Assembly: GCF_022045235.1 (NCBI RefSeq)
Contig: NW_027266268.1
Coordinates: 8,494,001-8,558,000 of the forward strand
Length of the DNA stretch: 64,000 bases
Direction of reading: 5' to 3'
From: Haliotis cracherodii
Taxonomy: Eukaryota
Below the pieces are notes generated by a model. It saw nothing but the letters and a program-made list of their open reading frames with translations. It was not told the DNA's origin and searched no databases. This document shows, in pieces, positions 26,801 through 60,604 of the stretch. Numbering within the stretch: position 1 is the first letter of the stretch; each line of letters begins with the position of its first letter. A program made the position numbers and the translations under genes.

Positions 26801-27929
26801 GCCTTCTCACATTCACTCCCCAGTCTCTCTTCTGATCTCTCTACATATTTTGTTATCAGGGTACACTGTTCAGAGTGTGCAGGTTGATTTGTACAAAAGG
26901 TTTGATTTATATGCTCAAACCAAGTGTACAACTCCGTACAATGAAACCCTGATGTCACCCAGAGTTCTGTCCCTTGGTGTTATTTGAGGGGTCTGTCTTT
27001 TTAAAAATGAATAATAACCGTTAAACATAGTAATATGATATTCATACTGAATATGCCAAAAAACATATTGACAAAATATTATTACATAATAATGTTTAGT
27101 AAATGTAATTTTAGAATTCAACGACATAATCATGATAATGGATATTGTACATGTTTACATAAATATTTCTGTACAAGTTATTTGCAAGTTCCCTGCCTCG
27201 GGGAAATGATAAGACTGTGTATGTGTGTACTGTACATGTTTTTGTACAATTTTCTTCAAGACAAAATATTAATTTCACGAGTTTTTCAATCCAGTTTTGA
27301 TTTCATCAGTTTTTTTCCATACTGGACTCGCTGGAGTAACAAACTTATTATTTTTGTATATTCTATTGGACAATAGTTTTTCAATGGAGAGCCAAAACAT
27401 TTCGTTTCTCACCTGTTTGAATATTGCAGGACACACAGATAAATATATGGCAATTGTTATGTGACATTGCAATTATGTATATTTTTGTTTTTATAACTTA
27501 ATGAACAATTCTATGTTTTACCCTATCATTCCATGAATAAAGAAGTATTATAATTTGAAACTAACCCCGTGTCTAGTGATTTCACAACATGTAAAGTTGA
27601 TAGTACAATACTCCATAATAATGGTTTTGGTTGATTGTGTGTCATGATACGCTGTGTATCGTTGCTGACAATATCGATCACTTGATTTCTGGACCATACT
27701 TGATTATTTACAGGCCTCCATCATCTGAGATCCGGTGGTTGTGGTGTGGTACTGGACTGTGTCATCCTGTCACCATGACAACAGTCTCAGTTTACAACTG
27801 CCCCATTGGGATTCTGAGATAATTAGACCCCAGCAACGTCTGTGTGGTGGGTTATCAATGCAGAGTGATGTGTTTAAAATAAGATTGTTATGATGACACT
27901 CACTGGCCATGCTGTCAACTATTCTGCCA

Positions 27930-30810
27930 CAGAATCCCCACAGGGAGACAAGCATGGGGTACTGGGCATCTAGCCTGCCATGGAATCCCAACCGGGAGAC
28001 AAGCATGAGGTACTGGTAATCTAGTCTGCCCCTTAATCCCCACAGTTAGACAAGCATGAGGTACTGGGAATCTGGTCTGCCACTTAAACCCAACAGTAAG
28101 ACAAGCATGGGGTACTTGGAATCTAGTCTGCCACTTAATCCCCTCAGTTAGACAAGCATGAGGTACTGGGAATCTGGTCTGCCACTTAAACCCAACAGTA
28201 AGACAAGCATGGGGTACTTGGAATCTAGTCTGCCACTTAATCCCCACAGTAAGACAAGCATGGGGTACTTGGAATCTAGTCTGCCACTTAATCCCCTCAG
28301 TTAGACAAGCATGGGGTACTGGGAATCTAGTCTGCCACTTAATCCCCACAGTAAGACAAGCATGGGGTACTTGGAATCTAGTCTGCCACTTAATCCCCAC
28401 AGTAAGACAAGCATGGGGTACTTGGAATCTAGTCTGCCACTTAATCCCCACAGTAAGACAAGCATGGGGTACTTGGAATCTAGTCTGCCACTTAATCCCC
28501 TCAGTTAGACAAGCATGGGGTACTTGGAATCTAGTCTGCCACTTAAACCCCACAGTTAGACAAGCATGAGGTACTGGGAATCTAGTCTGCCACTTAATCC
28601 CCTCAGTTAGACAAGCATGGGGTACTTGGAATCTAGTCTGCCACTTAATCCCCACAGTAAGACAAGCATGGGGTACTTGGAATCTAGTCTGCCACTTAAA
28701 CCCCACAGCAAGACAAGCATGAGGTACTGGGAATCTAGTCTGCCACTTAAACCCCACAGTAAGACAAGCATGAGGTACTTGGAATCTAGTCTGCCACTTA
28801 AACCCCACAGGGAGACAAACATGGGGTACTGGGAATCTAGTCTGCCACTTAATTCCCACAGGGAGACAAACATGGGGTACTGGGGATGTCTGCCACGGAA
28901 TTCCCACAGGGAGACAAGCATGAGGTACTGGGAATCTAGTCTGCCACTTAAACACCACAGTAAGACAAGCATGAGGTACTGGGAATCTAGTCTGCCACTT
29001 AAACCCCACAGTAAGACATGCATGGGGTACTGGGTATCTAGTCTGCCACGGAATTCCCACAGAGAGACAAGCATGGGGTACTGGGTATCTAGTCTGCCAC
29101 TTAATCCCCGCAGGTAGACAAGCACGGGCTACTGGGAATTTAGTCTGCCACTTAATCCCCACAGTTAGACAAACATGGGGTACTGGGAATCTAGTCTGCC
29201 ACGGAATTTCCACAGGGAGACGAGCATGAGGTACTGGGAATCTAGCCTGCCATGGAATCCCCACCGGGAGACAAGCATGAGGTACTTGAAATCTAGTCTG
29301 CCACTTAATCCCCACAGGGAGACAAACATGGGGTACTGGGAATCTAGTCTGCTACGGAATTTCCACAGGGAGACAAGCATGAGGTACTGGGAATGTAGTC
29401 TGCCATGGAATCCCCAACGGGAGACAAGCATGGGGTACTTGGAATCTAGTCTGCCATGGAATCCCCACAGGGAGACAAACATGGGGTACTGGGAATCTAG
29501 TCTGCCACGGAATTGGCACAGGGAGACAAGCATGAGGTACTGGGAATCTAGTCTGCCATCTAATCCCCACCGGTAGACAAGCATGAGGTACTGGGAATCT
29601 AGTCTGCCACTTAATCCCCACAGTTAGACAAGCATGAGGTACTGGGAATCTAGTCTGCCATGGAATCCCCACAGGGAGACAAGCATGAGGTACTGGGAAT
29701 CTAGTCTGCCATGGAATCCCTACAGTGAGACAAACATGAGGTACTAGGGACCTTCTCTGCCGGGTAATCCCCACAGGGATAAAAGCATGGGGTACTGGGG
29801 ACCTATTCTGCGGGGTAATCCCCACGGGGAGAAAAGCATGAGGTACTGGGGATCTATTCCGCCCTAGAATCTCCACAGGGAGACAAGCATGCGGTACTGG
29901 GAATCTAGTCTGCCATGGAATCCCTACAGTGAGACAAGCATGAGGTACTGGGAATCTAGTCTGCCATGGAATCCCTACAGTGAGACAAGCATGAGGTACC
30001 GGGAATCTAGTCTGCCATGGAATCCCTACAGTGAGACAAGCATGAGGTACTGGGAATGTCTGCCATGGAATCCCTACAGTGAGACAAGCATGGGACACTG
30101 GAATCTAGTCTGACACCTAATCCCCACAGTGTGACAAGCATGAGGTACTGGGAATCTGGTCTGCCACGGAATCCCCACAGTTAGACAAGCATGAGGTACT
30201 GGGAATCTAGTCTGCCATGGAATCCCTACAGTGAGACAAGCATGAGGTACTGGGAATCTAGTCTGCCATGGAATCCCCTCAGGGAGACAAGCATGAGGTA
30301 CTGGGAATCTAGTCCGCCACCTAATCCCCACCGGGAGACAAGCATGGGACACTGGGAATCTAGTCTGCCATGGAATCCCTACAGTGAGACAAGCATGAGG
30401 TACTGGGAATCTAGTCTGCCATGGAATTCCCACAGCGAGACAAGCAAGGGGTACTGGAAATGTAGTCTGCCACGGAATCCCCACAGGGAGACAAGCATGG
30501 GGTACTAGGGACCTTCTCTGCCGGGTAATCCCCACAGGGAGAAAAGCATGGGGTACTGGGGACCTAGTCTGCCATCTAATCCCCACAGGGAGACAAGCAT
30601 GGGGTACTTGGAACCTACTCAGCCACGGAGTCCCCACAGGGAGACAAGCATGAGGTACTTGGAATCTAGTCTGCCACGGAATCCCCACAGTTAGACAAGC
30701 ATGGGGTACTGGGGATCTAGTCTGCCACGGAATCCTCACATTGAGACAAGCATGGGATACTGGGAACCTACTCAGCCACGGAATCCCCAAAGGGAGACAT
30801 GCATGTGATA
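27930..30810. repeat. Minisatellite, 51-bp unit, about 56 copies
   Basis: Unit GGGAGACAAGCATGAGGTACTGGGAATCTAGTCTGCCATGGAATCCCCACA (variant ...CCACTTAATCC...); it accounts for the 17-aa-repeat ORFs in the track. Confidence 0.97.
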
Positions 30811-31644
30811 CGTGGGATATATGAGTGCATAAAATTTAATGGTTCTCAAACAATACCATTCTAATACTTAAATCGCACAAGACTCAAAGGTATTAGTCAC
30901 GCGTCTCCAAATATCATTTTTTCCAGATCTACCGCACCTGATGAGCCAGGTATTTGTAGTCTCATCTCGGGTCTATATATGGACCCCATGTGCTTTTTGG
31001 GTGCCTAGTTCCAGAAATAGCAGATAACAGGCTGGGCCTGTCCCACACATGTCCCGCTCCCACACCCGGCATTGAACCACCATGGAGGCTTTTCACATAC
31101 TGTGTCTCATCATCGGTGAGTTTCTTTGGACAAACATTTAAAAACTGTTAATACTAATTGAAATCTTGACAGTCGTGTGGTATGCACTTTCTGTTGTGGA
31201 AGGGGTTGGTGGGTTGAAACAATGAACTGTATAAGTGAATTATTTTATCGACTCCTCGAGCAATATATGTCAGTTTTATAAGGGTGTGTCAGCTTATTGT
31301 AACACTATGAACAGACTTGCAGCGAACAACGAGCACGGGTATGGTGCTGACTGTACAATGAACATTTAAAGTGGTTCAAATTCGATTAGGGGATCCTTTC
31401 ACGGTGAGGCTACTCTTCAAGCCAAATTGCGGAGCCTTATATACACAGTCGAGCCTGACATGTTCCCTGAAACTGCTAATGACTAAAAGTACATACTTAC
31501 ATTAAAAAAGGTAAGTTATTAATTGAATCATTGAATAATCACAGGACAAGTTCAAGGCCAGATACGGTGGTCGCGAGGGTTCGAGATAATGCGGGGTTTG
31601 CGAGACACATGTGATGAACATCTCCAGCCACATGAAGCTGACGA

Positions 31645-32240
31645 ACCGTGATATATCCGAAATACTGTTTAATTGAGTGACACGCCGTGATATAACTGAA
31701 ATACTGTCCAAAGTGAGTGACACACCGTGACATATCTGAAATACTGTCCAAAGTGAGTGACACACCGTGACATATCTGAAATACTGTTTAATTGAGTGAC
31801 ACACCGGACATAACTGAAATACTGTGTAAAATAACTGACACACCGATATAAAACTGAAATACTGTTCAAAGCGACTGACACACCGATATAAAACTGAAAT
31901 ACTGCTCAAAGCGACTGACACACCGATATATAACTGAAATACTGCTCAAAGCGACTGACACACCCTCATATAATAACTTAAATACTTCTCAAAGCGACTG
32001 ACACACCGATATATAACTTAAATACTTCTCAAAGCGACTGACACACCGATATATAACTTAAATACTGCTCAAAGCGACTGACACACCGATATATAACTGA
32101 AATACTGCTCAAAGCGACTGACATACCGATATATATCTGAAATACTGCTCAAAGCGACTGACACACCAATACATAACTTAAATACTTAAATACTCAAAGC
32201 GACTGACACACCCTCATATAACTGAATACTGCTCAAAGCA
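31645..32240. repeat. Minisatellite, 40-bp unit, about 14 copies
   Basis: Unit GACTGACACACCGATATATAACTGAAATACTGCTCAAAGC. Confidence 0.92.
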
Positions 32241-32344
32241 ACCTCGATACTTCACGATTATTGCTCCCAACGGAAGAACATACTAGCTGAAGCACCTTGC
32301 ACCGTGCTCATCATCATCTGGTACAATAGCATCCCCACTCGATA

Positions 32345-35300
32345 ATGTGGTGATTTATACAATTGTCTGTTTTAGTTGGAGCTGCATTTGTTGTTGCACA
32401 GTTTCCGTTTCAACCACCAAATGGTAAGTATTATTATATATAGTACTTTTACTTCACCCGAAGGGTTCTACAGGGTAGCTGTAATTCTCAATACACAGCA
32501 CATAAACTCGATGCAGTGGTCGTTCAGATAGCCTCTCCTTGAAAAAACTGAGTCTACGCCGATTTGATAAGGCACTTCGCTTGATTGACATTCATTTCTG
32601 TTATTATTTACAGATTAAAATAATAAAATTGCAGCAATGAGGGTTTGGGTGATCCTGGCACAGTCAGGCTGGTTTGGCTCATCATCAGTCCAGGGCCCTT
32701 GCCCCCCTCTACAGCAGCCAAGACAGCGAAGGGAACTTCTCCCAGGAAGCGCTGCCTAGTCAAACCCAACCGAGAACTTTTCGGAGAATGTGAAGACTCC
32801 CCAACACTGCAGCCTTCAGCATTGTCAGACGGGCTGTATTCCCGGTAGCAAAGCCGAGTACTCTTCCAATGTCAGTCAACAAATTGGGAGGTACCAAACT
32901 TAAGCCACCGAAAAAAATGGGGCGTCGGACAACTTGGTACTTGGGATGCAAACGTGACATTTCAAAAGCGAGGTGTGCATATTTGCCATGTTTTACCCGT
33001 GTCGTGTCAATCACATTAGTGTCAAAGAGGGACAGAAAATTCAATAATATAAATGATTTCATTGGATTTATCATAACGGACAATCAGGTTTTTTTTGCCT
33101 GGATATGTCTGAAACAGTATACGGGCTTATTCCAAAGAATTTTGTATTTATCATTTTCCATGACACCCTCTACATATTCTGGGTCGTACCATGGATGGAC
33201 CACTGAGTCAAAACCATAAGCAAGGTGAAGACGGTAATAAAAGGATCGAGCCACTCCATCATGTCGCTTAAGATACTGTGTTTGTGCCAAAGCTGGGCAT
33301 CCACTGACAATGTAGTGGACAGACTCCTTAAATTCATTGCATAATCTACATTTTGATGCAAAATCACACATTGATGGTTTCGAGTGGGAAGTGACTGGTC
33401 TTGACCAGCAAACAGAAAGCATTCTGTTTCGTTTTTCGAACAAGCCGACTTCACCCAAGCGAAGGACTCTGCAGGGTTGCTGATCTCTACACACTGCACA
33501 CAAACTTATTTTTCTTCTTATTTTATTGATGATGAACCGACGAAGTAAGATGGTTAAAAAAATATAAAATACGATAATTGAAAAATAAATGAAGGAAGTG
33601 AAATCTAACTAAGATTATATTTCAGTTCCCTCGCAGTCCTGTCTGACGTGTACCTATCTGAGCGACCCAGCTGACTGCAAGCATTCCAAGAAGTGTTACC
33701 CTGGTGACGTGAGTTACAATGTTACAATGCTGCTACTTACCGATTCAATATGCAAACAATAATGGCATTCATGTACTATGTAATGCATGAATTTAAATAC
33801 AGTTAGACAGACCCGTGAAGATCCGGGGTAGAATAGGTCTTTAGCAACCAAAGCTTGCCGTAAGAGATGACTATGCTTGTCGTAAGAGGCGACTAACGAG
33901 ATCGGGTGGTCAGGCTCTACTACTTGGATCGATGCTCATGTTATGAATCACTGGATTGTCTGGTCAAGACTTGATTATTTACAGACCGCCGTCATATAGC
34001 TGGAATATTGCTGAGTGCGGCGTCAATCAATCAATCAATCAATCAATCAAATACAGTTAACCTTTTATCCCATATAACTAAGGGTATCTTTCTATCTCCT
34101 GGTTTAAGACCATCAGATCAAAAACTTTATTTTGAAATTTAAACAAACAAACAAACAAACAAATACATACAAATAAATAAATAAGGTATGATAAGGAGGG
34201 TAATGTAAAAACAGTAGAGACAATTATGTAGTTCTACCTTCCGATTCGTAATCCCATTCACTTATGTTTGGTAGAAGAGCAGATTCTTGAAATGTATATT
34301 TTATTTCAAATATTTAAATGTATTTATCACATGCCTACCGTGCATACGACTCTGTCTCTGTTTCAGTCCTGTTTCCTTGGCGAAGTACACGAGGCAGACA
34401 ATGAGACCTACTACATCCAGTATTGCTACCCTGAACCTGTAAGTCAAAATATATTTTGTCTCAGGAAATAATATGTGTCTTGCAAAATCACGCCAGCAAA
34501 GTGTTGAAGCATATTGTTGAAGGTATTGTGTGATGGCCCACGATTCGCTGTGCAGAGTTGCGTCCCTTGGGCACGCCAGAAACCTATGATTGTGGGTTCG
34601 AATCCCGGTTCGCCCAGATTATGTTTTTAGGTTTGTCAGCACCATACCCGTGCTCGTGGGTTTCACCGAAGTGGTAAACGTCTGAGACCTGCATCACTTC
34701 GGGCTTACTGGAATACTGTCAAAGTGGCGTTAATTTCAACTCACTCACTTTAAATCCAGCAGCATCGGATTGTATCGAAAAAACCCCATTTGTCCCAGAA
34801 AATGCTTGAAAAAACTCATACTGTTGCAATGAAAAGGAATTGTCTGCCACAAAAATACAGTATTTAAATAATATGTATATTTAAGCTCATAGCTTTAAGC
34901 AAATTAAATATCTGGTTTTGCAACTTAGGTGAAAAATATCTTCTCTCCATACAAAATCCCGGCGCCGTTAAACTCACTCACCCAAAATTCACCGTAACGT
35001 AGCCCTGGAACCTGATTCGAATTTCAATAATAAAGCAGTACATACATAATCAGTTACAGCAAGCAAAATAATGATAAATGGGCAAGTGATGTATACTAAC
35101 CACATACATGGCGTGATACAAACAACATCTAATAATGGTGCCTTCGACGAGAAAGCTTAAGTATGTTATTTCTAGAAACAAACGTTGTTGAACATACACA
35201 ACATGTATTTCGTCCCATTCGGGAATACGTATCTGAAATTTCAGTTGGTTGGTCTGTAGTAATAACTGATAGACTAGAAACGGAACAGTTAGAAACAGCG

Positions 35301-36926
35301 AGGGTGGCTGCATATCTTCCAACATTTTCCAAAGCCAGTGAACATTATGAGACAAGATGTTTACGTTAAGTATTAGAAAAACACAGACAGAAAAAAAGCT
35401 ATGCATATTCTACAAAATTATTCATTGCACCAAGATTATCTTCATGCCTTACCTGAGCTCCTTAGACAATTGAAACTTTCATTGATTGTAAACTACGAAC
35501 CAAATTTAATCGTTCAATCATCAGATTCAGAACAATAACTGTACAAAAACCTTCATTTATGTTAACAGCTTTGTGTGGAATCAGGGTGGCTCAGTCGTCT
35601 AAGGCGCCGCGATTCGCTGTGCAGAGTTGCGTCCCTTGGGCACGCCCGAAACCTATGATTATGGGTTCGAATCCCGGTTCGCTCGATTATGTTTTTAGGT
35701 TTGACAGCACCATACCCGTGCTCGTGGGTTTCACAGAAGTGGTTAACGTCTGAGACCTGCATCACTTCGGGCTTTCCTCCCACATTAAGCTGATACGCCG
35801 CGATATAACTGGAATACTGTTAAAAGTGGCGTTAAACCCAAACCCAATCAGAAGTAAGAGGAGCAAGTACATTACAAGTATTCAAAAAGAACATACGTCA
35901 GAAACAAAGCACTATGCCTTGTTTTTACCCGTCAGGAAACCGTTAACTTTACACGCAAGACTTCTTAACGCTGACGTTTTCAAGGCAAATCTTGTTAAAT
36001 TTGACTGTAATTGTGAATCAGAATCTGAAAATGTTTCCTCGAATGTCGCAATAACATTATATCGCTATAGCGTTTTCCAAATTTGGCATAAAATGTGGTC
36101 TATATACCATTCTATTTTGTGTCAATGAGTTCCAGGTAAATAGTTATAGTTTATCGACTAAAGGATTTAAATAGTTCATGGGTTTGTCTCCAAATATGTT
36201 TGTTGAAAATAATACTAATGTTTGCATATATTGATCTTTTGGACAAATTGTACTTTTAAAGAAAGGGCGAGATCGGCCCCTGGAGCTTTTCCCAATCCTT
36301 TTAACTGTATTCAATCAATAAATTATGTACAACACAACGAGTGTCACGTTGTCTAACACAGTCCAAGTGAACCTTTACAGTTCAACCATTTGCGACATCC
36401 CCGCTTGTAAATCATCGTGTTCTTACACAGTCCATGTGAACCTTTACATTTCAATCAAAGGCGACCGACGTAACATCCCTGTTTGTAAATCATCATTATA
36501 TAACGCAGTCCATGTGAACCTTCACATTTCAACCAATGGCGACCGATGTAACATCCCTGTTTGTAAATCATCATTATGTAACGCAGTCCATGTGAACCTT
36601 CACATTTCAACCAATGGCGACCGACGTAACATCCCTGTTTGTAAATCATCATTATGTAACGCAGTCCATGTGAACCTTCACATTTCAACCAATGGCGACC
36701 GACGTAACATCCCTGTTTGTAAATCATCATGTTCGGACACAGCCTATGTGAACCTTTACATTTCAACCAATAGCAACCGAGCTAACATTCCTATTTCCTG
36801 CTGTAGGGCTGTTTACAGATGAAGAGTCTGGTCGAGCAGGGGAACAACGAGCTCCGCGGCTACCACTTCAACTGGATCTCCTGCTGCAACACCGACGACT
36901 GCAACAACATGATACCTCAACCCTAG
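32345..36926 (+). CDS. Secreted Ly6/uPAR (three-finger) protein. Exons 32345-32423, 33626-33708, 34367-34438, 36807-36926; 117 codons with in-frame TGA at codon 3 (possible null allele or pseudogene)
   Basis: Spliced translation MW*FIQLSVLVGAAFVVAQFPFQPPNVPSQSCLTCTYLSDPADCKHSKKCYPGDSCFLGEVHEADNETYYIQYCYPEPGCLQMKSLVEQGNNELRGYHFNWISCCNTDDCNNMIPQP*. Ten Cys, CxxC start, CCxxDxCN end; donors GTAAGT, GTGAGT, GTAAGT; phases 1,0,0 match; no GPI tail. Confidence 0.85.
32470..33505 (-). mobile_element. R4/Dong-like non-LTR retrotransposon, 3' part (RLE endonuclease), in intron 1 of the Ly6 gene
   Basis: CRLCNEFKESVHYIVSGCPALAQTQYLKRHDGVA (CCHC plus RHD), KILWN, C-terminus LKAAVLGSLHILRKVLG ending at 32760; frameshifted; 32470-32600 is a second short fragment; homologous to 38600-39030. 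Confidence 0.8.
33809..34050 (+). mobile_element. SINE-like family B with (CAAT)n tail and TSD
   Basis: Full-length copy; AAATACAGTTA at 33795-33805 and 34049-34059. Confidence 0.85.
34535..34750 (+). mobile_element. SINE family C
   Basis: GATTCGCTGTGCAGAGTTGCGTCCCTTGGGCACGCCAGAAACCTATGATTGTGGGTTCGAATCC. Confidence 0.8.
35583..35845 (+). mobile_element. SINE family C, full length
   Basis: GGTGGCTCAGTCGTCTAAGGCGCC head, GGCTTTCCTCCCAC, tail CTGGAATACTGTTAAAAGTGGCGTTAAACCC. Confidence 0.85.
36345..36795. repeat. Minisatellite, 78-bp unit, about 5.7 copies, at the 3' end of Ly6 intron 3
   Basis: Unit AACGCAGTCCATGTGAACCTTCACATTTCAACCAATGGCGACCGACGTAACATCCCTGTTTGTAAATCATCATTATGT. Confidence 0.92.
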
Positions 36927-37544
36927 ACGCTAGTGGTCACGTTTACATTGCATGGCATGTTCATCTTAGTTCGTTATATGACGTCAGCCATTTTGTGCTT
37001 TTTGTGTGTAACTTTAATGTATTTTCAAATTTCAGTTGTTCGGTTTGGTTAAGATATTAAAAGAGATTTCAACAAAAAAAACGTTATCTAATCCTTCATG
37101 CTCAAAGAATATATTGTTTGTCGAAATCGCCCTTTTTTATAACGAAACAGTTCCCACCGTGTGTACAAGTAATTTTTCATCCCAAACTGGCTCCCACAGG
37201 AGATATCGCTTGGGTGAGATCAAGCGATTTATAACTTGTCCGTGAAGAGATCACCCGTTTAATAAACATACAGCTGTATTACACATCGTGTAATACCAAA
37301 ACGCGTGCTTTTGTACTCTTTTGAAACCTACCAACATCCCTTGGCTTATTCAACGACATTGCGTGTGGAGATGATAGATCACTGAGAGGAGCTTATGCAC
37401 GTTCGATTACCCCAGCAACCTTGTTGCTAAGCTGACGTCACATGGCATTGTTTCGTCGATGGGTCTTGAAATAAAATTCCAGAAATTACGTCATCGGGTA
37501 TTGTGACGTGATTGTAAACTTTGATCGCTCGTAAGTCTATGATG

Positions 37545-38599: not shown

Positions 38600-39875
38600 T
38601 ATACCATGGATGGAACTCTGTGTCAAAACCACAAGCATGACGAAGACAGTTATAAAATGATCGAGCCACTCCACCATGTCGCTTAAGAAACTGTGTTTGT
38701 GCCAAAGCTGTGCATCATCCACTGACAATGTGTTGAACAGTCTCACTAAATTCATTGCATATTATACATTTCACACTTTTATTTTGATTTATAAATCAAT
38801 GCAAAATTTCGAGTGGGAAGTGACTGTTCATGAGCAGCAAACAGAAAGCCTTCAGTTTTACTTTTCAGGCCAGCCGACTACATCCAAGCGAAGGACTCGG
38901 CAGGGTTGCTGATCCTCTCAAGACAATGCACATAGACTCGTTACAATGGTCGTTTAGGTAGTTTCTCCTTGAAAAACTGAGTCTTGTTGATTTGATATGG
39001 CACTTCGCTTGGCTGACACTCATTTCTGTACTGTTCAGCAGTACAGAACCATTAACAAAATCAACACTGACATTGAGATTATGTCCCACATCCTTGGCTC
39101 ATTTATGAAAACTGTGGAATGCCTTATTTTCATCATGAGTCTTGACATCCTTCACAAGACGATCATCAGACAAATAAACGTTTACAAAAGTGCACAATAC
39201 AATTCCATCATGAAGTACATCCACGTTAATTAAACCACGCCATCCCATTATGATGGGTAAATATATGCGTTTGAGGGAAGAGCGAGTGTAATGGGATCTA
39301 CTGTCTGACATGATTCTTTGTGTGAGGGTGTCAATACCCTGAATTTCTTGTTTCGCCTTATCAACAACACCAAAAGAATATGAAAGGACGGGTACAGCAT
39401 AAGTACTTGTGGCTTTAACTTCATTGCGAGGGTTCAAATCTGAAATCCAGATTTTCTTAAGTATCAATTTGTACTCTGCCCAAAGTGTTTCCTTGATATG
39501 GGCATTCTGAATCTTGCCCCTCCCCTGCATCCCTAAGTTCTTTAGTCTGACCTTCCATGAGATGGTCAATAACTCCAAGTGAACTGACCGATCCTCCTTC
39601 TTCTACCTTGCCACGTTTCAGATGAAGAATGGTGCATTTGTCAAGTCCAAAGACATGCCGATACCATTAGAAAAAGACCCGACACGAGGAATCTGTTTTT
39701 TAATGTGGCTCCTCCATTGGCAATAAGTTCAAGATCATCCATGTAAAGGAGGTGAGTAAGGGGTGTTGGGGATCTGTGCTGAGGCCCATGATGAAAATCT
39801 TCTTCTGTGCTAAACAAAAAGCTTAAAGGATTAAGGGACAAACAGAAAAGCAAAGGACAAAAAGAATCGCACTGA
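38600..39875 (-). mobile_element. R4/Dong-like non-LTR retrotransposon, degenerate RT through CCHC/RHD region
   Basis: CDSFCPLLFCLSLNPLS, LTHLLYMDDL, LNPRNEVKATSTYAVPVLSYSFGV, RIYLPIIMGWRGL; collinear with 33170-33500; 5' end abuts (TAA)n. Confidence 0.8.
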
Positions 39876-41846: not shown

Positions 41847-44800
41847 TCAGATTTGGAAAAAGGAGATGGCATTAGCAATTATCTTTGAAAGATCTTGTTT
41901 TACCTTGTACCATACAATCTCTGCAACCAGTATCAGGAAACTGCAGATCAGCCCAATTCCCACAGCAAAGAACATACTCTGGATCTTGATGAGTGACACA
42001 GCTTTAGGGAAACTCTCTACTGGACATTTGACCTTCGGGGCAGACTGAAGCCATTCTTGCATGGTACGCTGCAGGATACCACTGTCGCGTAGATGATACA
42101 TCCTGGCAGTGACAACGATTTACATAGGATTACATCCCAAGGATTACCAAACAAAAGAACGCTAACGGTCTAACGGTACAATGTAAAGCGTTGTCAAAAT
42201 ACACAGAAATCATCAGATGAAAACAGAGATTCTATTTATTGATGGAAAAGAAAATGACTTGACTATCGTTTTATAGGGGCAGTCAGATGGTACGACTAGT
42301 TTATTGTATCGGGTCAACAGCTATTCCAATGAGCACCAGCCTTGTAATATTTACATATCCATTTTACAACGATATGGCAAACCCTATAACTGAGTAAATA
42401 TGTAAAATAGTATAAATTGTCAGACCGGTAAATATTCATAATTCTAAATGAGGAAACTTCAAAATTAAACGTTAATGCAAGAGGATACTTCTGTGACAAT
42501 TTGAAAGAAAACTCGATGAGGTAATTAACTAAGTATTATTTAATTATTAATTAAATAAGTATTATGTACACTCATTATATTCGTCAATCTATTAAGTGAA
42601 CAAATGATCGATTCAGACCTACGTTTTTTCCAGATCCTGTTTGAAAGGAGAAGACTTTGGAAGATGGAAGGCTGTGTAGGAATGTCCAAATTTAGTGTCG
42701 AGTAATTGCAATCTGCAATCAGCATAGCTTAAAGGGACAATGACTGTGCCCGAGATGAAAGCGTATTTTCCCTCATGGACTCTTTGCAGGTGCTTGGTGA
42801 TGTTGATACCGAGTACGTCAGGATCTGTGACAGATAAGTCCCGGACTCGTTGTACGACACCCTTGATATCTGATTGCTTGGTATTCTGAAAATCATTGTG
42901 GAGTGGTCACATGTCTTAACACTAATCTAAATCTCTTTTAATGCAAACGTATGTATGTACAATAATTAGAACTGCGTTGCACATACCTATGTCTTGAGTA
43001 TTGCATGTAATCTATGTTCTTATGGGAAACAATCACGTGTATAGTGTAGACCTGTCAACTGTTCCAATCGTATCAAGATGATCCATTTTCAAGCCCCGTT
43101 TTTAATTAGATATTGTAGGTATTTGTCATCTAACACTATATTAAATATACCATGTACATCGACAGAACTGAAGCGAAATGGAAATCCTTTTCGTCTACAG
43201 AATGAAGACACAGTTGACATGGATTTCAGTTTCAAGCAAGTTGATAAGGGCACTAGCACCTGTACTGACCGTGAAGACCCGTGAAGAGAATAGGTCTCCA
43301 GAAACCCATGAATGCCATAAGAAGCGACTATGCTTATTGTAAGAGGTGACTAACGGGGTCGGGTGGTCAGGCTCGGTGACTTGGTTGACGCATGTCATGG
43401 TATCCCAACTGCGTGGATCGATGCTCGTGATATCAAATATTGGATTGCCTGGTCCAGACCGCCGGCATATAGCTGGAATATTGCTGAGTGCGGCGTTAAA
43501 CAACAAACATACTGTGCTGAAACGTCACAACTAAAGAGCAAGAGGGACTGAAATCCACAAGTCAACATTGTCTTCACTGTTAGTACATGCCACTTGAACA
43601 TACCACTACAGACGAAGAATCAATACATGGCTGGGTCACGTGTTCAAATTTTCACATTGAAAACACCCTTCCTTCGTTCTATTCGTGCTTTAGTGAAAAG
43701 TCTGTGCTGCAAATACTTGTGTCAATAAATGTAGGACATCGTATCTCGTTTCAAACACAGCATTATTGGAATTAAAGATTATTTGTGGGTGAAAACGAAC
43801 TGACACTCTATGTTCCATTCCACACAGTCAGTCATCCTTGAGGATAACACAAAACCATCTCTCAAGTTACATTTCAGGAGATATGGATATACCTCATGGA
43901 TGAATGGCTGTGTCCATAGCTATTGATAATTAGTCAAAACATTTGGGTAAGTTTTCTTCCAACTTTTTTAATTGCTCTTATTGAATTTTAATCTTTGTAT
44001 GATAGTGCAGAAAAAAAGTATTGACAAATGTGACATTCTTAAATTTGATATAAAAAATCGATTTAAAGAAATTACTAATTTAAATTCCAATAAAGGAGTT
44101 ATTAAAACAATGAAAGAAAGACGGGATAATATAACGGTGCCTCATATATGACCACTTGTTAAATAACGTTGACATTTTTTCTTTACCTGGAAAAGGTTTT
44201 GAGTAATGCTTGATGAATCGTAGCCTATTTTGTTGTCTTCTCTGGCTACAAGTTCAGTCAGGTTTGAAAATGGTGGCTTTTCTAATTTTATAGCAAATGT
44301 GGCCACGATGGTCCCAGAGTAGACAGCAGAGATAATGGTTGTAAACATCCACCATGCCGCAACAAAGATCCGATCCGAGTCATGTGATACATGTCTTTCT
44401 GATCCTGTATATGAAACGTGATTATAAGCAACACATTTATTCAAGTATTATACTCATTCACTCATAAAGTAGGGACATAAGCTATTAAGTCAAACAATTT
44501 GTTGTAGTCAAATAGATCACTTGACAAAAAACATTTGAATCTGGAACTTGCAAACCTATCCAAACCTAGAATAATACAAATATCTTCTTTCAAAATGTGG
44601 TTATCTTTTAGCATGCACTTAGAGACTATCTAATAGTCGATGTAATGTCGAACGACATTTTGTTGTAGATGAGTACGGGAGTGTGTGAATGTTGTTGAAC
44701 AGCATAATTAACAGCAATATTCGAGCTGTATGAAGGCGATAATATCCAAAAAATAAAGAGACGGAAAGATCCACACATTCAGTGTCGAATGGCGCGCAAT

Positions 44801-47800
44801 CAGCCAAGTCACAGAGCTTGATCATTCAATCAGTTCAACTTGATTCTTGTCACAGGAACCGGTTCAAAAATAAATCGGCGTGTGTGTTTGTGCGTTCGTG
44901 CGTTCGTGCGTTCGTGCGTGTGCGTGATAATTCTCCACAAGAAAAGATTCATCAATTGCATATTTCAATCTTTTTGCTTTATACATTATGTTTGATAAAT
45001 TTACTAAAAACATAAGAAGTATCTGCTAAACGCAGAGTACGAATCACAGTGGTTTACTGGTTGTTTTAACAACAACAGAACAATATATTCTTACCTTGCT
45101 TCAAGCAGGCCCCATATAGTTCAAATGTTGTTGATGTAACAGTGTCCATGTTATTTTTCCACGATGGGCACAGTTTTTCAGTTCGCAGATTGTGGTCCAC
45201 ATTCTTATCCTTGGAACTCAAATGCGACTTAATGAATCTCACAGAGGACAATAAGACAGTAGAAAAAAACAGTGACACTCCAAGCACAATAAAGACATGA
45301 GATTGGAACGGTCTGAGAAAGACCAGCAGATGGTCCTGATCAGGCTCTTCCTTCCTGAACAATACAATGCGTTTGTTCTCAAACACGGGTGGCAAGATGA
45401 AATCCGCCACAGAGTAACGGTCGATGTGGATTGTGATATGGTCAGCTGCCAAGTCGGCCTCCTGTGTTGACGCGCCAGGATGATTACATGAAATGAGTTT
45501 GACATAATATATCATAAACATTAATATCAACCGTAAAAAGACCACTGATGTCAGAATCAGTGACTGCCATATGTCATGAGTAAACACGTATGGAAATATA
45601 TGTATTTCTGGGCATGGTATAACATATCTAGACTAGTTTTAACTAAGCTTGGTTTTCATAACGATAAGGTAGCACCTGCCCTAGTCACTGTACAATAAAG
45701 CGATAAAACCCTTCCATGATCATAAGAAAGCTCTGCTAAAGAAGAGTCCAGGGTCAAACGCATGCAAAGGCAAGTCAATGATTCACCTGAACAAATATAG
45801 GAAGATATGGTACAAGACAAAATAAGAAATTGCATGGGACATAATTTTAGTCACCGATGCTTCAAGTGTGGAAATATCCTCCACGTGCCTACCATAAAAC
45901 TTTGTAAAAGGTTTACTTTGACCTTGAATGTTGTAACCCTAATCAAACGTTTGAGCAAGAGTCATGTGGTACTGATATGACGCTCTTAGTCGAGCAAGCA
46001 CGATTTCACGTCAAACGTGTACCAGAGGCATTAGCTGTTCGAATGTTGCTTGGAATATTTGGATTTTCTTAAACGTTTTTGTCACTTTCATAAAAGAGTT
46101 CTAAAAACAAATGAGGCGTTTTCCCTATTATCTTTTATTTCCATTTCCCTTGGGAAAATCAGTGGAGGGGAATTGGTTACTTGACAGTTTAATTTAATCA
46201 AATCATTGATATATCTTAAACGTTATTTATATCTGTTTTCAGTTTGCCAATCCGAGAAGAAATTTCGATTCACACGCATAAAGAAACAGATAAGTAAGAA
46301 GGGAAACACAACTGGTGCCCATGGGGATGCCTACTTATTGGCTAAATGTCCTATCTTCACATTTCAGATAGATGTTATTTATCAGGAAGTCCAACATGTC
46401 ACATATTACCTTCTCATGAAACCGCAGATGACATTTGTTTTCACGTTAGTCAAATTGCCCCGACCCTTAGAAGATAGAGATGACGAATTCCATAAGGATC
46501 AAAAGAGGCACTGGATATACATCCTCTTCCCTAGCAGGGATATCTGCCTAACAGAGGCACTGGATATACATCTACTTCCATAGCAGGGATATCTGCCTAA
46601 CAGAAGTACTGGATATACATCTACTTCCCTAGCAGGGATATCTGCCTAACAGAAGTACTGGATATACATCTACTTCCCTAGCAGGGATATCTGCCTTACA
46701 GAAGTACTGGATATACATCTACTTCCCTAGCAGGGATATCTGTCTAACGGAAGTACTGGCTATACATTTACTTCCATAGCAGGGATATCTGCCTAACAGA
46801 AGTATTGGATATACATCTATTTCCCTAGCAGGGATATCTGCCTAACATAAGTACTGGACACACATCTACTTCCCTAGCAGGGATATCTGCCTAACAGAAG
46901 TACTGGGCATACATCTACTTCCCTAGCAGGGATATCTGCCTAACAGGTCTCATATCTTGTAAACGTCAAAAGGTGAAATTTATACTTTGTAAACGTAACT
47001 TTTGAAAATTGTTGACAAATGGACGGGTCATGTGAACAACAAATAGCCAATCACATTACCGGAAAACTCTTCAAAACTTCAAAATAGTTTGTTCTATATA
47101 AACTACTGTATCACTAGCCTTGTATTACATATTGCCTGTACCAAGTATGGCATGTTCTTACTGGTCTGTCTCTACTTACCCTTCTCTGCAACATGCCGAG
47201 CACCCCTGTCCACGAACCATTCTTGTTCTTGCCCCATACACTTTCTCTTGGCGAGATGACCTCATAACTGTTATACGTAATAATAATAATTATATTGCTT
47301 GTTCAGAAGGTTAGAAATTGCATTTAATGCTTCTGTGAGCAGTCTGTTATATTTTCAAATAATACAATAAGAGAGAACCAGGAAGCACTAATGTGGGTCC
47401 AATAAATTTCCACATAGTGGAACATACTTTAATCTGCCTAACAAAACCACTTCAACCAAACAACATATGGGCAAGAAAGAGTATGTACGTCAAAAGTTGT
47501 GACATGTAGACACAAAAGGCAAGATCCGATGGAGTATGAGTTTCAAGCTGAGTATTGTCATACAATCGTGTGGATAGTTTCTTTTGTCTCTCTGAATCTT
47601 TATGCATAGATCTAAATATTAAACACATGAGGCGGTTTCACTTCTTTTTCTTTTAATTATTTCACACACTGCCTCCTCAGGAAACCTGAGATGACGTTTG
47701 CTTTTTTGACAAATCTTCCCGAACCTTAGAAGATAGAGAATTAACTTTACGTCTATGGACAACGTGTGACAAATAGATCATGGAACGAATTTTTCAGCGC

Positions 47801-50800
47801 AGGTGTGTCGTTAGACAAGGTGGTTAGCAAAGCCACTATTAGGATGAACAACTATTTTTTAATGATGTCAGTGCTTTATCAATTCAGCATAAGTTCTTTT
47901 GCAGGGTCTATTAATGCATGAAACAGATTCCCCATTTTCTATTTCTGTCTGTGCTGAATGCATGTTGAAATGCATACATTCAGTTCTAAGATTAAAATTG
48001 CGGAGATATATCACATTGCACCTTATTTTTTTTCATATCGGAGTCTCATATGTTTTAAGTTAAGATTGTGTGCAGCAACTTACAGATGTCCAAAGGATAA
48101 AGTTCACCTGAAATTTAGATTGACTGCCAACATCTGCAATATGTGGAGTGACAAGCTGGACACCTTCCGCTTGTTGACAATCTCGTAGCCATAGTTCCAT
48201 GGATGAGTCTGCAATTACACATATGGGTGAAGGTATGAGAGTTTACAAATATACAGCAACACAATCCTTTCCATAATCATAAGAAATCTCTGCTAATACC
48301 AGACTACACTGTACGATTACGGCGAGGTATGTGATTTTGAAATTCTTCTTTTGTACTGGACACCAAAGCTCTATAAAAAGCCGTACAATGAGGGATATAT
48401 TGGTGGGTCGAGCAAATGAACCGCCAAATCCTTGTCTCAAAGATGATCTAATCCTTAGTGGAATTATGAAAGGACTTCCTTAATATTCACAGAACGTATT
48501 TGAGAAGCAGAAAATACGATCAGTCCAATAATATAATGATGCGACAAGACTCTAACCTTTACAAAAATTAGGTAGCGTTAAGCAGTTGCTACATTTCGCT
48601 TAGCAGTTGCCCTGCTGATCTGTTTCTTAATGCGTATGAATCAAAGTTTCTTCTTGGATTGCTAAAATAAATACACAGGAATTTGGCCAAGACGTTTAAC
48701 TATTGCTTCAGGTACATAGATGATCTGATATTTTTCAATAGTGGTGAAATACCCAATTCCCTTCCTCATGAAGTAAAAGACAGCCTCTTATGATTCATAT
48801 TTAGATCTCTGTATAAAAATTGACTAAAGTGCAAGCGTTTGGTAAACTTTTAAGGAACAATCGAGCTTGCTCTCACGAAGATTTCAAAGAGCGTCATATG
48901 ACTCTTGCTCAAAAGTTGTTTGATAGTGTTGCAAAACAAAAGTGCAAACGATATTCCGCGACTAGGTCTTAAATTGAAGTTGCAAAACTTATTGAACACC
49001 TCTCGTATGTCTTTGAAACACTGCCATAGCCTTTCGGCATAGTAGGAAATGTTTTTTACATGCAAGTGAACACGCTCAGTTCTAATCTAACAGATAGAGT
49101 ACCAATGCACGGTGACTTGGCTGATGTTAAGTCATTATACCCTGGCGGAATAGGACGTGATGTTCTCGATTACTTACATGCCATGTAGTTTTGAAACAAA
49201 AACAAGAAACAACCCACCGAGTCACACATAACCGGTACGTTTTCTGCAGCTCTTATAATCTGCAGTAGGTTCTGCCAACCTGGATGTACGTGACTTAATG
49301 GATGGGGTACCTTCATGACGACTGTCAGTTGCCGGCCATTGTAACCGAACCTCACGTTGGAGAAAACTTCTGTGACATTTCCTTCTACATCAGAGAGAGC
49401 CACGTCCGCAAAAGCTCGTCCATTGGGGTGAATCATCAGTGTCCACATCCTTGGCTTTGTGAAATCTCCCTGTTATCAGACAACCATGTATACGTATGCC
49501 ATTGAATTATTAAAATAACTTAATGGTTGGGACAGTCAAGATACATTATAAATAATGTGTACAGTCCCTTTGAACTCAGAATAATTTATTAACACTTATA
49601 ACGTAATGTTACCACGATTCTCATTTGTTAATACTTATGCAAATTTAATAGACCATGACGACATACACGACTACTTCCTTTCCTACCCGTTACTGAATAA
49701 CAACCAACTATTTACAAGAATGTATGACAAGAAGGGTGACTTCAACCTTCACTTTATGCCGAACATAATTCCAGCAGATCTAACCTTTGTGTTCACATTT
49801 CACAACTTTTGAGTTAAAACTCGAGAATGGTCTTTCTACGAAGATGTCAAAGGGCGTCATATGACTCTTGACCGGGGTTACAACTTTAAAGGCTAAAGCT
49901 TTCAAAGGGTCTTATGGAAATGTGTAGTTTTGATGTATTGGTGACTCAAATGGCGTCTGGTGCAATTCCCTATTTTGACTTGTGTCATATGTTCCCGTGT
50001 TTTTTAGGAGAACGTTTGTCTTGTCTTTGGATGTTTGTGTGACTGTGACGGGTGCCGTCACTATTTGATAGCGAATAATAAACACAATCTCATGCTGATG
50101 ATAAAGTCGGAATCATAAAAAGGATTCTGCTTTCAGCAGAGATTTCTTATAATTATGGAAAGGGTTTTGATGCCTTTATGGAAATACCATAATGTCATCC
50201 CCTTTATCCTATATGTATTTTCTTACCCCTATACATATATAGTATATTTTTTTTTACCCCTATATATTGTATCTTATTTTCATTGTATCATGACACATAC
50301 GCTGGACTCATTCCCTATTGCAGCATTGATTTGAGTCCGGTTGAACATATAGCCGTCCAATCTTATCAAACTCGTGTGCGAGAGAAATCCGTTATCGGTT
50401 TTATCTTGCCACATACCTTAATGGAGGAGGAAGAACAAATAGCATGTATCAATGAAAGGTTCTGTCAAGGATGATAATGGAGGTGAATCAGGGATTCAAA
50501 ACTCGGATCATGGCAAATTATGAGGCGCCTTAGACAACTAATCATCAATACAATCAATACAATGCACTCTAAAATATTTAAATATTTGGCCGTTTTCACC
50601 ATTGAGGATGAAACTGGCACCATCCAACTGTTTAAAAAGAGCATACTTGTCCTGTAGGCAGTTCCAGCAGTGCCACATTCTCCAGTTTAATGTTGCTGTC
50701 CAGGAGTACAGGTAAATCATCTGATTTACCGACAACCAGCACCCGTGAGACGTGGCACCAGTCAACCGAGGAGTTGGATCTAGTTCCACAGATTCCAGAC

Positions 50801-51695
50801 TGGCTAAGAGAAACTAGTTTTCAATTTCATTCAATGATTAAACAGAAAGTGGACATTATTTTACGAGAGATAAAATGATTCTTTCACTAAGTTTCATCAT
50901 GATCTTTGCATTTTTTATAAAAAATATATAGAATTATGTGTTGTCGAAGACAAACGCATTGCTGGCTTTTGAACATGGGACCGATAAGAATTTTCTTAGC
51001 GCCCAAAAGTCACACGTTTTATATAACGTACAAGTATCGACTTAATGACATTCGAGTCTTAGAATTTATGATATTATTGGCTACAAATCTCTCATTTATC
51101 TAACACATTTCCCTAACATTGCAACTTAACTGCTTGAGGTCGTAACAACAACTGATAGTTTTAGACGTGTAAAATTTCTCTGCAACTCTGCTGTGCGGAA
51201 ATAATTTTGTGATGTTTCAAAAGCCTTGCTTTTATAGAAAATGATTGATGTAATGAAATATTACATGCTGAAGAAAAAAACATATGTTGTTTATATAGTA
51301 TGTGAAAAAGAAATCTTTATGAAATTATTTCTGCACTGACAAATTGTAGAAGGAAATATTTGGCAAAACAAACTCTCCCAACTTGCAAAGTCTCATACTC
51401 TTTACAAAAGGTTACAATGAATCCAATTTACGACTATTTGAGATTAGAACAAGTGGTAACTGAGTTCTTGTTTCGACGTTGTTCCCTATTGTGTTTTCCC
51501 ATGCGTGACGAACCAGTTGACGTAAGACCGAAACAGTGGTTGTGACGTCACAGAGAAGCAGCACATGGATGTGGGGCTGGAGGACATTCTCTACATCTCT
51601 CAGCATTGTCAGCAGGTCTTCCTCTTTTGAGGAGCTAATGTCATAGTCCACATAGGAAATACCTGATGTTTCCAACGAGTGGGGGAAGTGTACAC
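41847..51695 (-). CDS. Divergent ionotropic receptor (IR / variant iGluR) 1, 5'-incomplete. Exons 51514-51695, 50647-50799, 49311-49469, 48108-48208, 47180-47267, 45095-45461, 44187-44404, 42623-42885, 41847-42102; about 595 aa
   Basis: In-phase GT-AG chain. S1: FGYNGRQLTVV...LAVNLNFSYEVISP..VWG..NGSWTGVLGMLQRREADLA..ITIHIDRYSVADF; M1 after FLRPF; pore LKQG; M3 RIFVAAWWMFTTIISAVYSGTI; S2 GKYAFISG, AFHLPKSSPFK, DSGILQR; M4 FFAVGIGLICSFLILVAE. The two most 5' exon boundaries are less certain; the start exon was not found. Confidence 0.88.
43267..43508 (+). mobile_element. SINE-like family B in an IR1 intron
   Basis: GACCCGTGAAGA...GGTCGGGTGGTCAGGCTCG...GCTGGAATATTGCTGAGTGCGGCGTTAAACAACAAAC. 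Confidence 0.8.
46503..46946. repeat. Minisatellite, 49-bp unit x9, in an IR1 intron
   Basis: Unit AGAAGTACTGGATATACATCTACTTCCCTAGCAGGGATATCTGCCTAAC. Confidence 0.95.
48400..48850 (+). mobile_element. Degenerate reverse transcriptase fragment (Penelope-like); related piece at about 49690-49920
   Basis: FRYIDDLIFFN at about 48707-48740; SYLDL follows; LFTRMYDKKGDFN at about 49708-49746. Confidence 0.55.
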
Positions 51696-51944
51696 CTGAA
51701 ACGTATAATACATACTTAATATGAACGAGATTTAGGATTTTCAGTGATCCATTCATATAATTTTTACCTTTATTTTGCCTGCTACGCCTAATGGAATCTG
51801 TTTCGGCAGTAAATCGAAATGATTTTATATTTTCGTTTTTTGGAAAATAGTAGGAGTAGTTTATTCCGAGGTAATATAGTCCATAAGCCCAAGGTGCATA
51901 TTGAAAGAAACCGAGTGCGAAAGTATATTATTTTGAGACAGGTG

Positions 51945-55744: not shown

Positions 55745-56990
55745 TTGATCACCCATTATCAACAAGTAGTTCAATTAATCATGATTTGTAATGTATTTCT
55801 CAATGGACTAAAACTGGGAAAGTAAAATTTAATCACGATAAAACAGAAGCAATTCAATTTTCAAGAAAACGTAACGTCACTGTCCGGGCTGATCTGTTCA
55901 TGAATGATGTAAAAATAAAGAATGTTAATAGCCACAAACACCTCGGGCTAACTTTACAAAGTGATGGGCATTGGTATAGCCATATTGAAAATCTAACTGC
56001 CAAGGTTAGCTCATTGATAAATTGCTTTCGTAGTCTGAAATATCGTTTGAACAGACACAGTCTACATTCGCTCTATTGTTCATTCATATTACCCTTGTTT
56101 GATTACTGTGACTATATATGGAATAATTGCACAAAGGGTCAAGAATTGTCCTTAGAAATGTTACATCTAGATGCACTCAGGACAATATGTGGTGCCACGA
56201 GGGGCACGAGTCATACAAATTATATAACGAAACCGGTCTATCCTCTTTGGCTGAGAGACGATACTTTCACAAATTATGCATTTTATAAAATGGAAAGTGG
56301 GACAGCGCCAAGTTATTTATGTGATATGGTACCTGTAGAAACCTTGGATCACCCACATTATGAAACACGTAACACAAATGAATACTCTGAGCCTAATTGC
56401 CGAACTGAATTATTTAAAAAATCAGTTTTACCTTCCACAGTCTCCGCCTGGAATGTACCAGATTCTTCTTAGAGAGAAGCCCATTCATTTTCTCAGTTAA
56501 AAAAACCCTGTATAAGTGTAATCCTGACATATTTGAAAATATTGGTTCACAAAATTGAAAGATGTTTTAGCGATAATGCTGAATGTACATGTGCTTTTTT
56601 CAACAGAAGTGCTTTACACTACCTATTTACTTGCCCAACTTATACTGAGATTAGATCTGAAAGCTATCATTGTGTTAATGGATATGACCTACGAACCGTC
56701 CTGTTTGGTAACGTCAGCCTAGACAAAGAAAAACTGACTCTGTACATCATTTCTTCTCTATGAGCAAAAGAGTTGTCTAAACATATACTCTTATATAAAT
56801 CTCACTAACAACTGTTTTATCTTTGATGTACCACATATGACTTAATACCAAGTCTATACTACTAAATAATTATACTACTGAAACTTGTTCGGATTTTGTC
56901 GGGGAGATATATTTACGAGTATATAGGCTCTGCCTGTTTATCAATCCCCTTTCACTATACCAAGTGGAAATAAATATTGTTTAAAAAACT
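55745..56990 (+). mobile_element. Degenerate CR1/L2-like LINE, 3' part
   Basis: KFNHDKTE, HKHLGLTL, LYCSFILPLFDYCDYIW, RTELFKKSVLPSTVSAWN, C-terminal CTC...HYLFTCP; AATAAA near 56969. Confidence 0.75.
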
Positions 56991-59465: not shown

Positions 59466-60604
59466 TTGGTGTCACATTTACACGGACGGATCCTCAGATC
59501 CGACCTCCAAACACACGGGTTTCGGAGTCCATACCACACAACCAACTAAAACCACACAATCCTTCCGACTCCCAAATAACCAATCAATATTCACGGCAGA
59601 ACTAATGGGCATGGCCTCAGCCCTCCACAATCAAGAATCCAAAAACCACCAAAAAATCCTAATACTTACTGACTCCCTAAGTGGACTACAAGCCCTCCAA
59701 AACAAAAATACCAAAAACCGACCTAAATTAATGAATCAAATACTTAAAAGCTCCAACGACCTAACAAAAGCAGGCAAACAAATAACCTTCTTGTGGATAC
59801 CCGCCCACGTAGGAATATACGTTAATGAAAACGCCGATAAAGCAGCTAAACTGTCCCTCAAAATCCCAGAAATAAGCTTAAACTTACCCATCTCAAAATC
59901 AGAAATTAAAAGTGTAAACAAACAAAAAATCACAAAAAAATGGCATAACCTATATCTAAACTCAAATAGCCAAATCAAAAGAGTGCTCAGCAAACCACTA
60001 ACCAAACCAAAAATTCTCCATCCATCAAAAAAAATCGACAGAGTAATCACTAAACTCCAAACAGGACACACCAACCTAAATAACCACCTAAATGTTTTTT
60101 AAAAACACACTACAGGTAACTGCCCACACTGCAAACAACCAGAAACCCCAGAACACGCTCTCATCCACTGCACACACTACCTAACACATCGAACTGCATT
60201 ACAAACCACCCTCAATCTAAACAAGGCTCTCACTCTAGAAGCAATACTAAACCCACAAAATAAACTAGAAAACTTCAAGGCCTTAGGCGTATTCTTAATA
60301 AAAACGGAACTAATAAAACGCATCTAAAACCATAATAACCTACCAAATCAAAATCACATAAACAAACAATCATCCACCATACCCAGCTCCCTTAGTTCTC
60401 CTCCCCAACCCCATCGGCATCTATTCCAAATCTCAAAATTCCCAAATTCTATATAGGCAACCCCTAAAGCCCCCTCTTGGGTTGCACAGACCACCCTCGC
60501 CCCTTTCGGAAACACATTAAATGGCCTGGCCGGGCCCGTGTGCGAAATACGCATCAGTCGGAAAGCGCACGTTAAATCTCCAAAGTAAGTAAGTAAGTAA
60601 GTAA
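59466..60604 (+). mobile_element. 5'-truncated I/Nimb-like LINE (RNase H plus CCHC) with (GTAA)n tail, inserted into a family B SINE; TSD GTCGTAA
   Basis: IYTDGS, FTAELMG, LTDSLS, WIPAHVGI, NENADKAAK; CPHCKQPETPEHALIHC after a frameshift near 60100; TSD at 59459-59465 and 60605-60611; SINE halves at 59391-59465 and 60605-60625. Confidence 0.9.

Follow-up and report, generated by a model that had tools for sequence, protein, structure and literature searches.

A five-exon abalone gene for a small, probably secreted three-finger protein of the Ly6/uPAR type

The window analysed here is a stretch of 64,000 nucleotides from Haliotis cracherodii (NCBI RefSeq assembly GCF_022045235.1, contig NW_027266268.1, positions 8,494,001 to 8,558,000 of the forward strand, where position 1 is its first letter). 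It contains an ordinary, spliced and annotated abalone gene of five exons, which encodes a small three-finger protein of the Ly6/uPAR (LU) type that is likely secreted. A note made earlier from the letters of this DNA had described a hidden gene of four exons which automated annotation could miss. RefSeq, however, was found to carry the correct protein of 118 amino acids together with models in two other Haliotis species, and the gene was found to have five exons, the first of which lies further upstream (coding part 31082-31115).

Gene structure and transcripts

The features of the gene are as follows (nt, nucleotides).

31082..31115, plus strand: coding part of exon 1, 34 nt, with the start context ACCATGG, the first 11 residues of the predicted signal peptide and the phase-1 donor GTGAGT
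32345..32375, plus strand: 3' end of intron 1, which closes with the genuine AG acceptor (32374-32375) and contains a false start ATG at 32345 followed by TGA at 32351-32353
32376..32423, plus strand: exon 2, 48 nt, phase 1-1, covering the end of the predicted signal peptide and the Pro/Phe-rich mature N-terminus
33626..33708, plus strand: exon 3, 83 nt, with LU cysteines 1-4; contig joints on both sides
34367..34438, plus strand: exon 4, 72 nt, with LU cysteines 5-6 and the sequon at Asn67; contig joints on both sides
36807..36926, plus strand: coding part of exon 5, 120 nt, with cysteines 7-10, CCxxDxCN, a polar tail and the stop codon TAG
36927..37096, plus strand: 3' untranslated region, with ATTAAA at 37056-37061 as the likely poly(A) signal; unspliced contigs from 4/4 runs

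The exon chain from 32376 onward was observed in contigs from sequencing runs. A search with positions 36797-37100 listed 24 runs, 18 of which contain the stretch; none of the 18 is recorded as RNA and 14 were guessed to be RNA, so that it is the spliced joints that mark them as RNA. Contigs from four of the 24 runs (four studies, three organisms) were aligned to 32240-37300. The junctions 32423/33626, 33708/34367 and 34438/36807, as the earlier note had placed them, are joined in the contigs of three, three and four of these runs respectively. At the second joint, run X2 shows a one-letter difference at 33708, which is the third position of an Asp codon, while run X1 differs at 34403, the first base of codon 68 that specifies the middle residue of the sequon; this residue also varies in H. 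asinina. The contigs of all four runs extend unspliced from 36807 past the stop codon, to 37043, 37073, 37073 and 37096, and no further 3' exon was seen in them beyond the stop.

The beginning of exon 2 was settled with runs X2 and X10, as the contigs of X1 and X4 are too short at the 5' side to define it. In X2 and X10 just 48 letters match at the first joint (a side of 48), and 87 and 46 additional 5' letters, respectively, fall outside the aligned stretch. The depth in the first bin of X2 was observed to be 29, with 29.0 expected if the match begins at 32375 and 54.6 if it begins at 32345; for X10 the observed depth was 12, with 10.4 and 19.7 expected respectively. The 48-letter match and the first-bin depth therefore identify 32376-32423 as an internal exon of 48 nt and place the TGA in the intron. 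The four stretches of 79, 83, 72 and 120 nt proposed earlier do possess GT/AG ends, compatible phases and a sum of 354 nt, but the first of them is false. A start at ATG 32345 would give a peptide of two residues, with TGA as codon 3, and the four-exon model was rejected on account of this stop. Readings of the TGA as a selenocysteine codon or an assembly error were also rejected since the codon is intronic, and an alternative acceptor at 32400-32401 was discarded because 48 letters are matched by the contigs.

A scan of positions 1-32375 for an ATG followed by hydrophobic codons and a phase-1 donor gave 59 candidates for the true first exon. The candidate at 31082-31115 ranks first of the 59 in hydropathy and ties for the best donor score, and the resulting five-exon model is an open frame of 118 residues starting at ATG 31082. 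The 31115/32376 junction would follow from the letter and depth arithmetic and from three agreeing gene models, not from direct reads. The model for H. asinina starts 12 residues upstream of the Met that is shared. Exon 1 probably begins at or before ~31029, and a TATA-like element lies ~100 nt upstream of the exon-1 candidate. Two further features lie in this region.

30974..30980, plus strand: TATA-like element of a putative promoter, the sole TATA[AT]A[AT] match in 30901-31082
31049..31075, plus strand: short upstream open reading frame in the presumed 5' untranslated region, 8 codons in the frame of the main start, closed by TGA

A minisatellite made of 57 copies of a 51-bp unit occupies 27919-30817, just upstream of the putative promoter, and yields long spurious open frames.

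A pseudogene or null allele, as the earlier coordinates would imply through the stop at codon 3, is next to impossible in our judgement. The in-frame TGA at 32351-32353 within the four-exon model would speak for it, but the contigs of X2 and X10, which extend sufficiently far to the 5' side, depart from the genome at 32375/32376, and the five-exon frame is open and agrees with the proteins of three species.

Protein sequence, orthologues and fold

When the open frame surrounding exon 3 served as query in a protein search, one protein (P0001) among 4 candidates was obtained. This is RefSeq XP_071096368.1 of H. cracherodii, from which the five-exon translation shows 0 differences in 118 residues. 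It forms a cluster of three with XP_046366965.2 (LOC124142499) of H. rufescens and XP_067660898.1 of H. asinina. All three are named 'uncharacterized protein' with no LU label shown on them, and a Pfam domain is not precomputed in the record of P0001. The two orthologue models are independent observations.

The LU domain is described as having 60-90 residues with ten cysteines in a consensus order (PMC6600238), and its C-terminus as a CCxxxxCN motif where a non-glycosylated Asn follows the tenth cysteine (PMC4839075, PMC6600238). Ten cysteines in the consensus order and a C-terminal CCxxxxCN with an Asn outside any sequon were both found in the abalone protein, in agreement with the ten-cysteine domain described earlier, with CxxC near its start and CCxxDxCN at its end. 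The domain extends from Cys33 to Cys111 with cysteine spacings of 2, 8, 5, 5, 17, 5, 23, 0 and 4, and the terminal motif comprises residues 105-112, Asn112 being the Asn in question. This motif occurs once in the six frames of the window, and 100 base-shuffles gave 0.12 occurrences on average, which argues that it is not due to chance. An LxCxxC element is well conserved according to PMC4839075 and lies outside the consensus in the available text of PMC6600238; in the abalone protein CxxC is present and the Leu position is taken by Gln (Met in H. asinina). The single N-glycosylation sequon noted earlier, NET, is present at Asn67 and is kept as NGT in H. asinina.

The sole hydrophobic stretch of the protein covers residues 4-18 (hydropathy ~3), and the C-terminus is without one. 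Small residues precede Gln20, at the predicted end of the signal peptide, and cleavage of a 19-residue signal peptide at this point would leave a chain of 99 residues with a mass of ~11.3 kDa and a pI of ~4.6. The protein is acidic, with 12 Asp/Glu against 5 Lys/Arg. No glycosylphosphatidylinositol (GPI) signal was found, as the earlier note had stated: a short polar tail is followed by TAG, and the contigs of 4/4 runs continue unspliced into the 3' untranslated region. Seven residues were counted after the last cysteine where six had been claimed; six is the number after the CN motif. A second CC..CN exon that could give an anchored form was not found in the 64-kb window.

The protein is highly conserved among the three species. 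Identity to the H. cracherodii protein is 99% in H. rufescens, where 1/118 positions differs and this position is in the signal peptide, so that the mature chain is identical. Identity is 86% in H. asinina, with differences at 4/19 positions of the signal peptide, 2/13 of the linker, 8/80 of the domain (72/80 LU residues identical) and 2/6 of the tail. The ten cysteines and the N-terminal Gln of the predicted mature chain are kept in all three species, and the orthologues stop at the equal position. The protein had been called lineage-specific, and only Haliotis orthologues were indeed found, in searches that are weak for short cysteine-rich proteins. No longer relatives were detected among 364 candidates, which is weak evidence. 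Among other matches, P0004 (a SprB-repeat protein) was dropped as spurious, and P0005 is a multi-LU protein whose match is limited to the last 30 residues. A literature search by the accessions and by peptides of the protein found no paper; no abalone LU study was among the literature matches listed, and the available text of PMC12514838 is without abalone content.

The Pfam family UPAR_LY6 (PF00021) matches P0001 at residues 32-113 with 21.9 bits and an E-value of 2.4e-4, covering profile positions 4-81 of 82, and the H. asinina protein (P0003) exceeds the family cut-off of 24.8 with 26.9 bits. Toxin_TOLIP also matches the LU protein (E 0.0048), under its cut-off. Ten of the ten Atlas neighbours listed are Ly6/uPAR-like or three-finger clusters (CD59-, LYPD6- and Ly6-like; best 0.88) and are taken as a lead only. 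Chains with the LU fold make up 16/20 and 12/20 of the top rows in two wide fold searches, as assigned by entry titles and by the gene list in PMC6600238; the best rows are PSCA (Z 5.3, root-mean-square deviation 4.2, 74 aligned) and Prod1 (Z 5.2, root-mean-square deviation 3.5, 66 aligned). A sequence search of the PDB gave no clearly related chain and matched no toxin chain. Matches to Crossveinless-2 in the PDB (E 0.05) involve four cysteines only and were lost with a profile.

Several observations weigh against this assignment. XP_071096368.1 is probably the annotation of the same locus and hence not independent. P0001 and P0002 remain under the UPAR_LY6 cut-off at 21.9 bits. The two AlphaFold models are of low confidence (mean predicted local distance difference test scores of 56.7 and 56.1), Foldseek returned no match with them at E 0.001 (best Lypd6, E 0.056), and an unrelated designed protein at rank 3 ties with the best Z of 5.3. 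LU proteins predominate among the fold matches, but the models are weak; a three-finger fold is probable. A single GPI-less LU domain of the secreted type is supported by sequence and Pfam and weakly by the fold searches, and we are highly confident that the gene encodes a secreted single-LU protein.

Copy number and genomic surroundings

The gene is single-copy, with one locus in its own genome. The last exon as genome query matches itself only, and the whole protein gave 13 matches, i.e. 4 of its own exons and 9 weak ones. No tandem paralogue was found in the window, and the nearest CCxx[DN]xCN motifs among the matches listed on its contig (C5) are at 4.42 and 10.26 Mb, with the gene at 8.53 Mb. 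A PF00021 search of the genome gave zero matches, this gene itself being missed as well, and is uninformative. Only one of the 9 weak matches (L007, on C6) resembles a related LU gene, apparently a multi-domain one. Its region, C6:32293000-32299000 (L007, L045), shows alternating LU-like first-half and last-half exons, and one exon there has its donor at the position seen in exon 3, which it resembles at 48% over 23 residues.

As a DNA pattern, CCxx[DN]xCN has 562 matches in the whole genome against 301 for a reversed control, and LU-type ends are therefore probably numerous. On C1 and C2 the first 30 sites were taken without picking, and the majority of these resemble chance matches. Eighteen C5 sites, hand-picked from the first 100 listed, were inspected. 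An in-frame hydrophobic tail was seen at 0/18, by a rough donor check that leaves splicing to an anchor exon conceivable for some, and 10/18 have a W..[TS]SD motif in common, with their ends lying 13-19 polar residues past CN. These dispersed terminal exons of LU type with W..[TS]SD..C and short polar tails include L047-L053, L057, L058 and L062. In view of such short-tailed exons, a GPI-less LU end appears not to be special in H. cracherodii. Furthermore, 15 CCxx[DN]xCN motifs in ~100 kb at 12.20-12.30 Mb of C5 suggest multi-domain genes or a cluster.

On the minus strand of the window, 42622-51927 and 62349-63538 contain exons resembling two tandem ionotropic (glutamate-receptor-like) genes. 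Their pore exons (44145-44447 and 63227-63538) exceed the Pfam Lig_chan cut-off and are without the SYTANLAAF motif. They are possibly chemosensory receptors, and a link to the LU gene is not indicated. A 642-codon open frame on the plus strand (20381-22306), apparently one large exon, begins with a hydrophobic stretch at the N-terminus of its product and encodes a glycosidase domain of the GH31 type (E 7.9e-25). Tandem arrays occupy 31651-32239 in intron 1 (40 bp x 14.6) and 36395-36796 in intron 4 (78 bp x 5.2), and the sequence around the last exon's acceptor resembles a degenerate version of the 78-bp unit. Very abundant short interspersed repeats are found in introns at 33810-34050, 34540-34710 and 35584-35841, where contig depth is far above that of the exons. 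Remnants of mobile elements lie at 1436-1843, 55792-56469, 59374-60099, 33087-33608 (minus) and 39102-39602 (minus); Pfam identifies a DDE transposase-like piece (E 0.0027) and an RNase H (E 1e-18), and the rest resemble retroelement pieces, by eye only.

Function and comparison with known three-finger proteins

We give about an even chance to a role as a soluble modulator of a receptor on the surface of the animal's own cells, on the basis of family knowledge and the conservation pattern. The signal peptide would be removed before Gln20 and the protein released from the cell, with five disulfides in the LU pattern (1-5, 2-3, 4-6, 7-8, 9-10) and a glycan on Asn67. The soluble three-finger protein would then bind, in the manner of the SLURPs, to a receptor on the surface of cells of the same animal. 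For the conserved partner that it would modulate, a Cys-loop (nicotinic-type) receptor or an integrin is the most plausible candidate. SLURP1 and SLURP2 are described as secreted LU proteins that act on nicotinic receptors (PMC4839075), and binding to an integrin-like protein was suggested for starfish Lystar5 (PMC11595613). Conservation by itself, however, does not name a partner, and this counts against the proposal.

The earlier suggestion of a pheromone, mucus or defence protein found no evidence, and the conserved, acidic product of a single-copy gene speaks against the rapidly evolving kinds of pheromone and toxin. Lytic peptides are typically cationic, and the excess of Asp/Glu over Lys/Arg is thus unlike them. 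An innate-defence or mucus protein that is secreted and acts on microbes or predators would be small, disulfide-rich and of secreted type as this one is, and would accord with the Toxin_TOLIP match mentioned above and with the toxin, antimicrobial and repellent roles hypothesised for secreted invertebrate three-finger proteins (PMC13719153); with a single conserved copy and no toxin chain matched in the PDB, we regard it as unlikely. A structural or matrix-associated protein of shell, mucus or basement membrane, binding extracellular proteins in a non-signalling manner, seems slightly more doubtful. The acidic chain, the one kept sequon and the invariant Pro/Phe-rich N-terminal segment on its own exon are in its favour, but the search by accessions and peptides of the protein found no paper.

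The gamete proteins of abalones evolve rapidly between H. cracherodii and H. rufescens, whose mature chains are identical here. A role as a pheromone or in gamete recognition, comparable to that of salamander PMF or fish Bouncer, is improbable, even if vertebrate three-finger proteins have been co-opted several times into reproduction (PMC8830517); PMFs are moreover hypervariable and highly duplicated according to the same source, and only one copy is present in this case. Equally improbable is a more specific proposal, in which the protein, protected by an N-terminal pyroglutamate, would be a Haliotis-wide water- or mucus-borne signal or would modulate, in soluble form, an ion channel of molluscs (nicotinic, or of the ionotropic receptors encoded adjacent to it). 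If true, no gastropod three-finger protein before it would have had a known target within the literature searched.

The importance of the gene is modest, as dozens of such genes are present per mollusc and other short polar-tailed LU-type exons occur on the same contig. Nevertheless, a family name can be assigned to three 'uncharacterized' RefSeq proteins and an earlier gene model is corrected. Little is known of what invertebrate three-finger proteins do (PMC13719153), and a conserved, probably soluble member of small size, with one gene copy and from a genus of farmed molluscs, lends itself well to such study.

The abalone protein shares with SLURP1 and SLURP2 a signal peptide (predicted in the abalone), one ten-cysteine LU domain, an Asn after the tenth cysteine and the lack of a GPI signal, and both SLURPs are among the fold matches of its model (Z 3.3-4.3), whereas sequence similarity to them is undetectable. 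The abalone gene has five coding exons compared with three described as typical of LU genes (PMC4839075), and, unlike in SLURP1/2, its LU domain is spread over three exons with two phase-0 introns. The protein further differs from them in the 13-residue Pro-rich segment before Cys1, the Gln for Leu in LxCxxC and a helix predicted by the model between Cys7 and Cys8. Snake three-finger toxins and salamander PMF have the absence of an anchor in common with it, as well as the fold class and secretion that are probable for the abalone protein, and their matches are a weak Toxin_TOLIP score and low-ranked Atlas rows. However, these are duplicated, fast-evolving gland products of hypervariable families, whereas the abalone gene is one conserved locus (1/118 difference between two species) with an acidic product and no evidence of toxicity. 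Domain and architecture class are shared with the starfish Lystar proteins and with mollusc three-finger proteins; Lystar5 is reported to sit on the cell surface (PMC11595613), whereas the abalone protein is likely soluble. A survey of 25 mollusc genomes counted 2086 three-finger proteins, 83 per genome, with secreted forms already in sponges (PMC13719153), and the abalone gene is an additional member of this very large known family.

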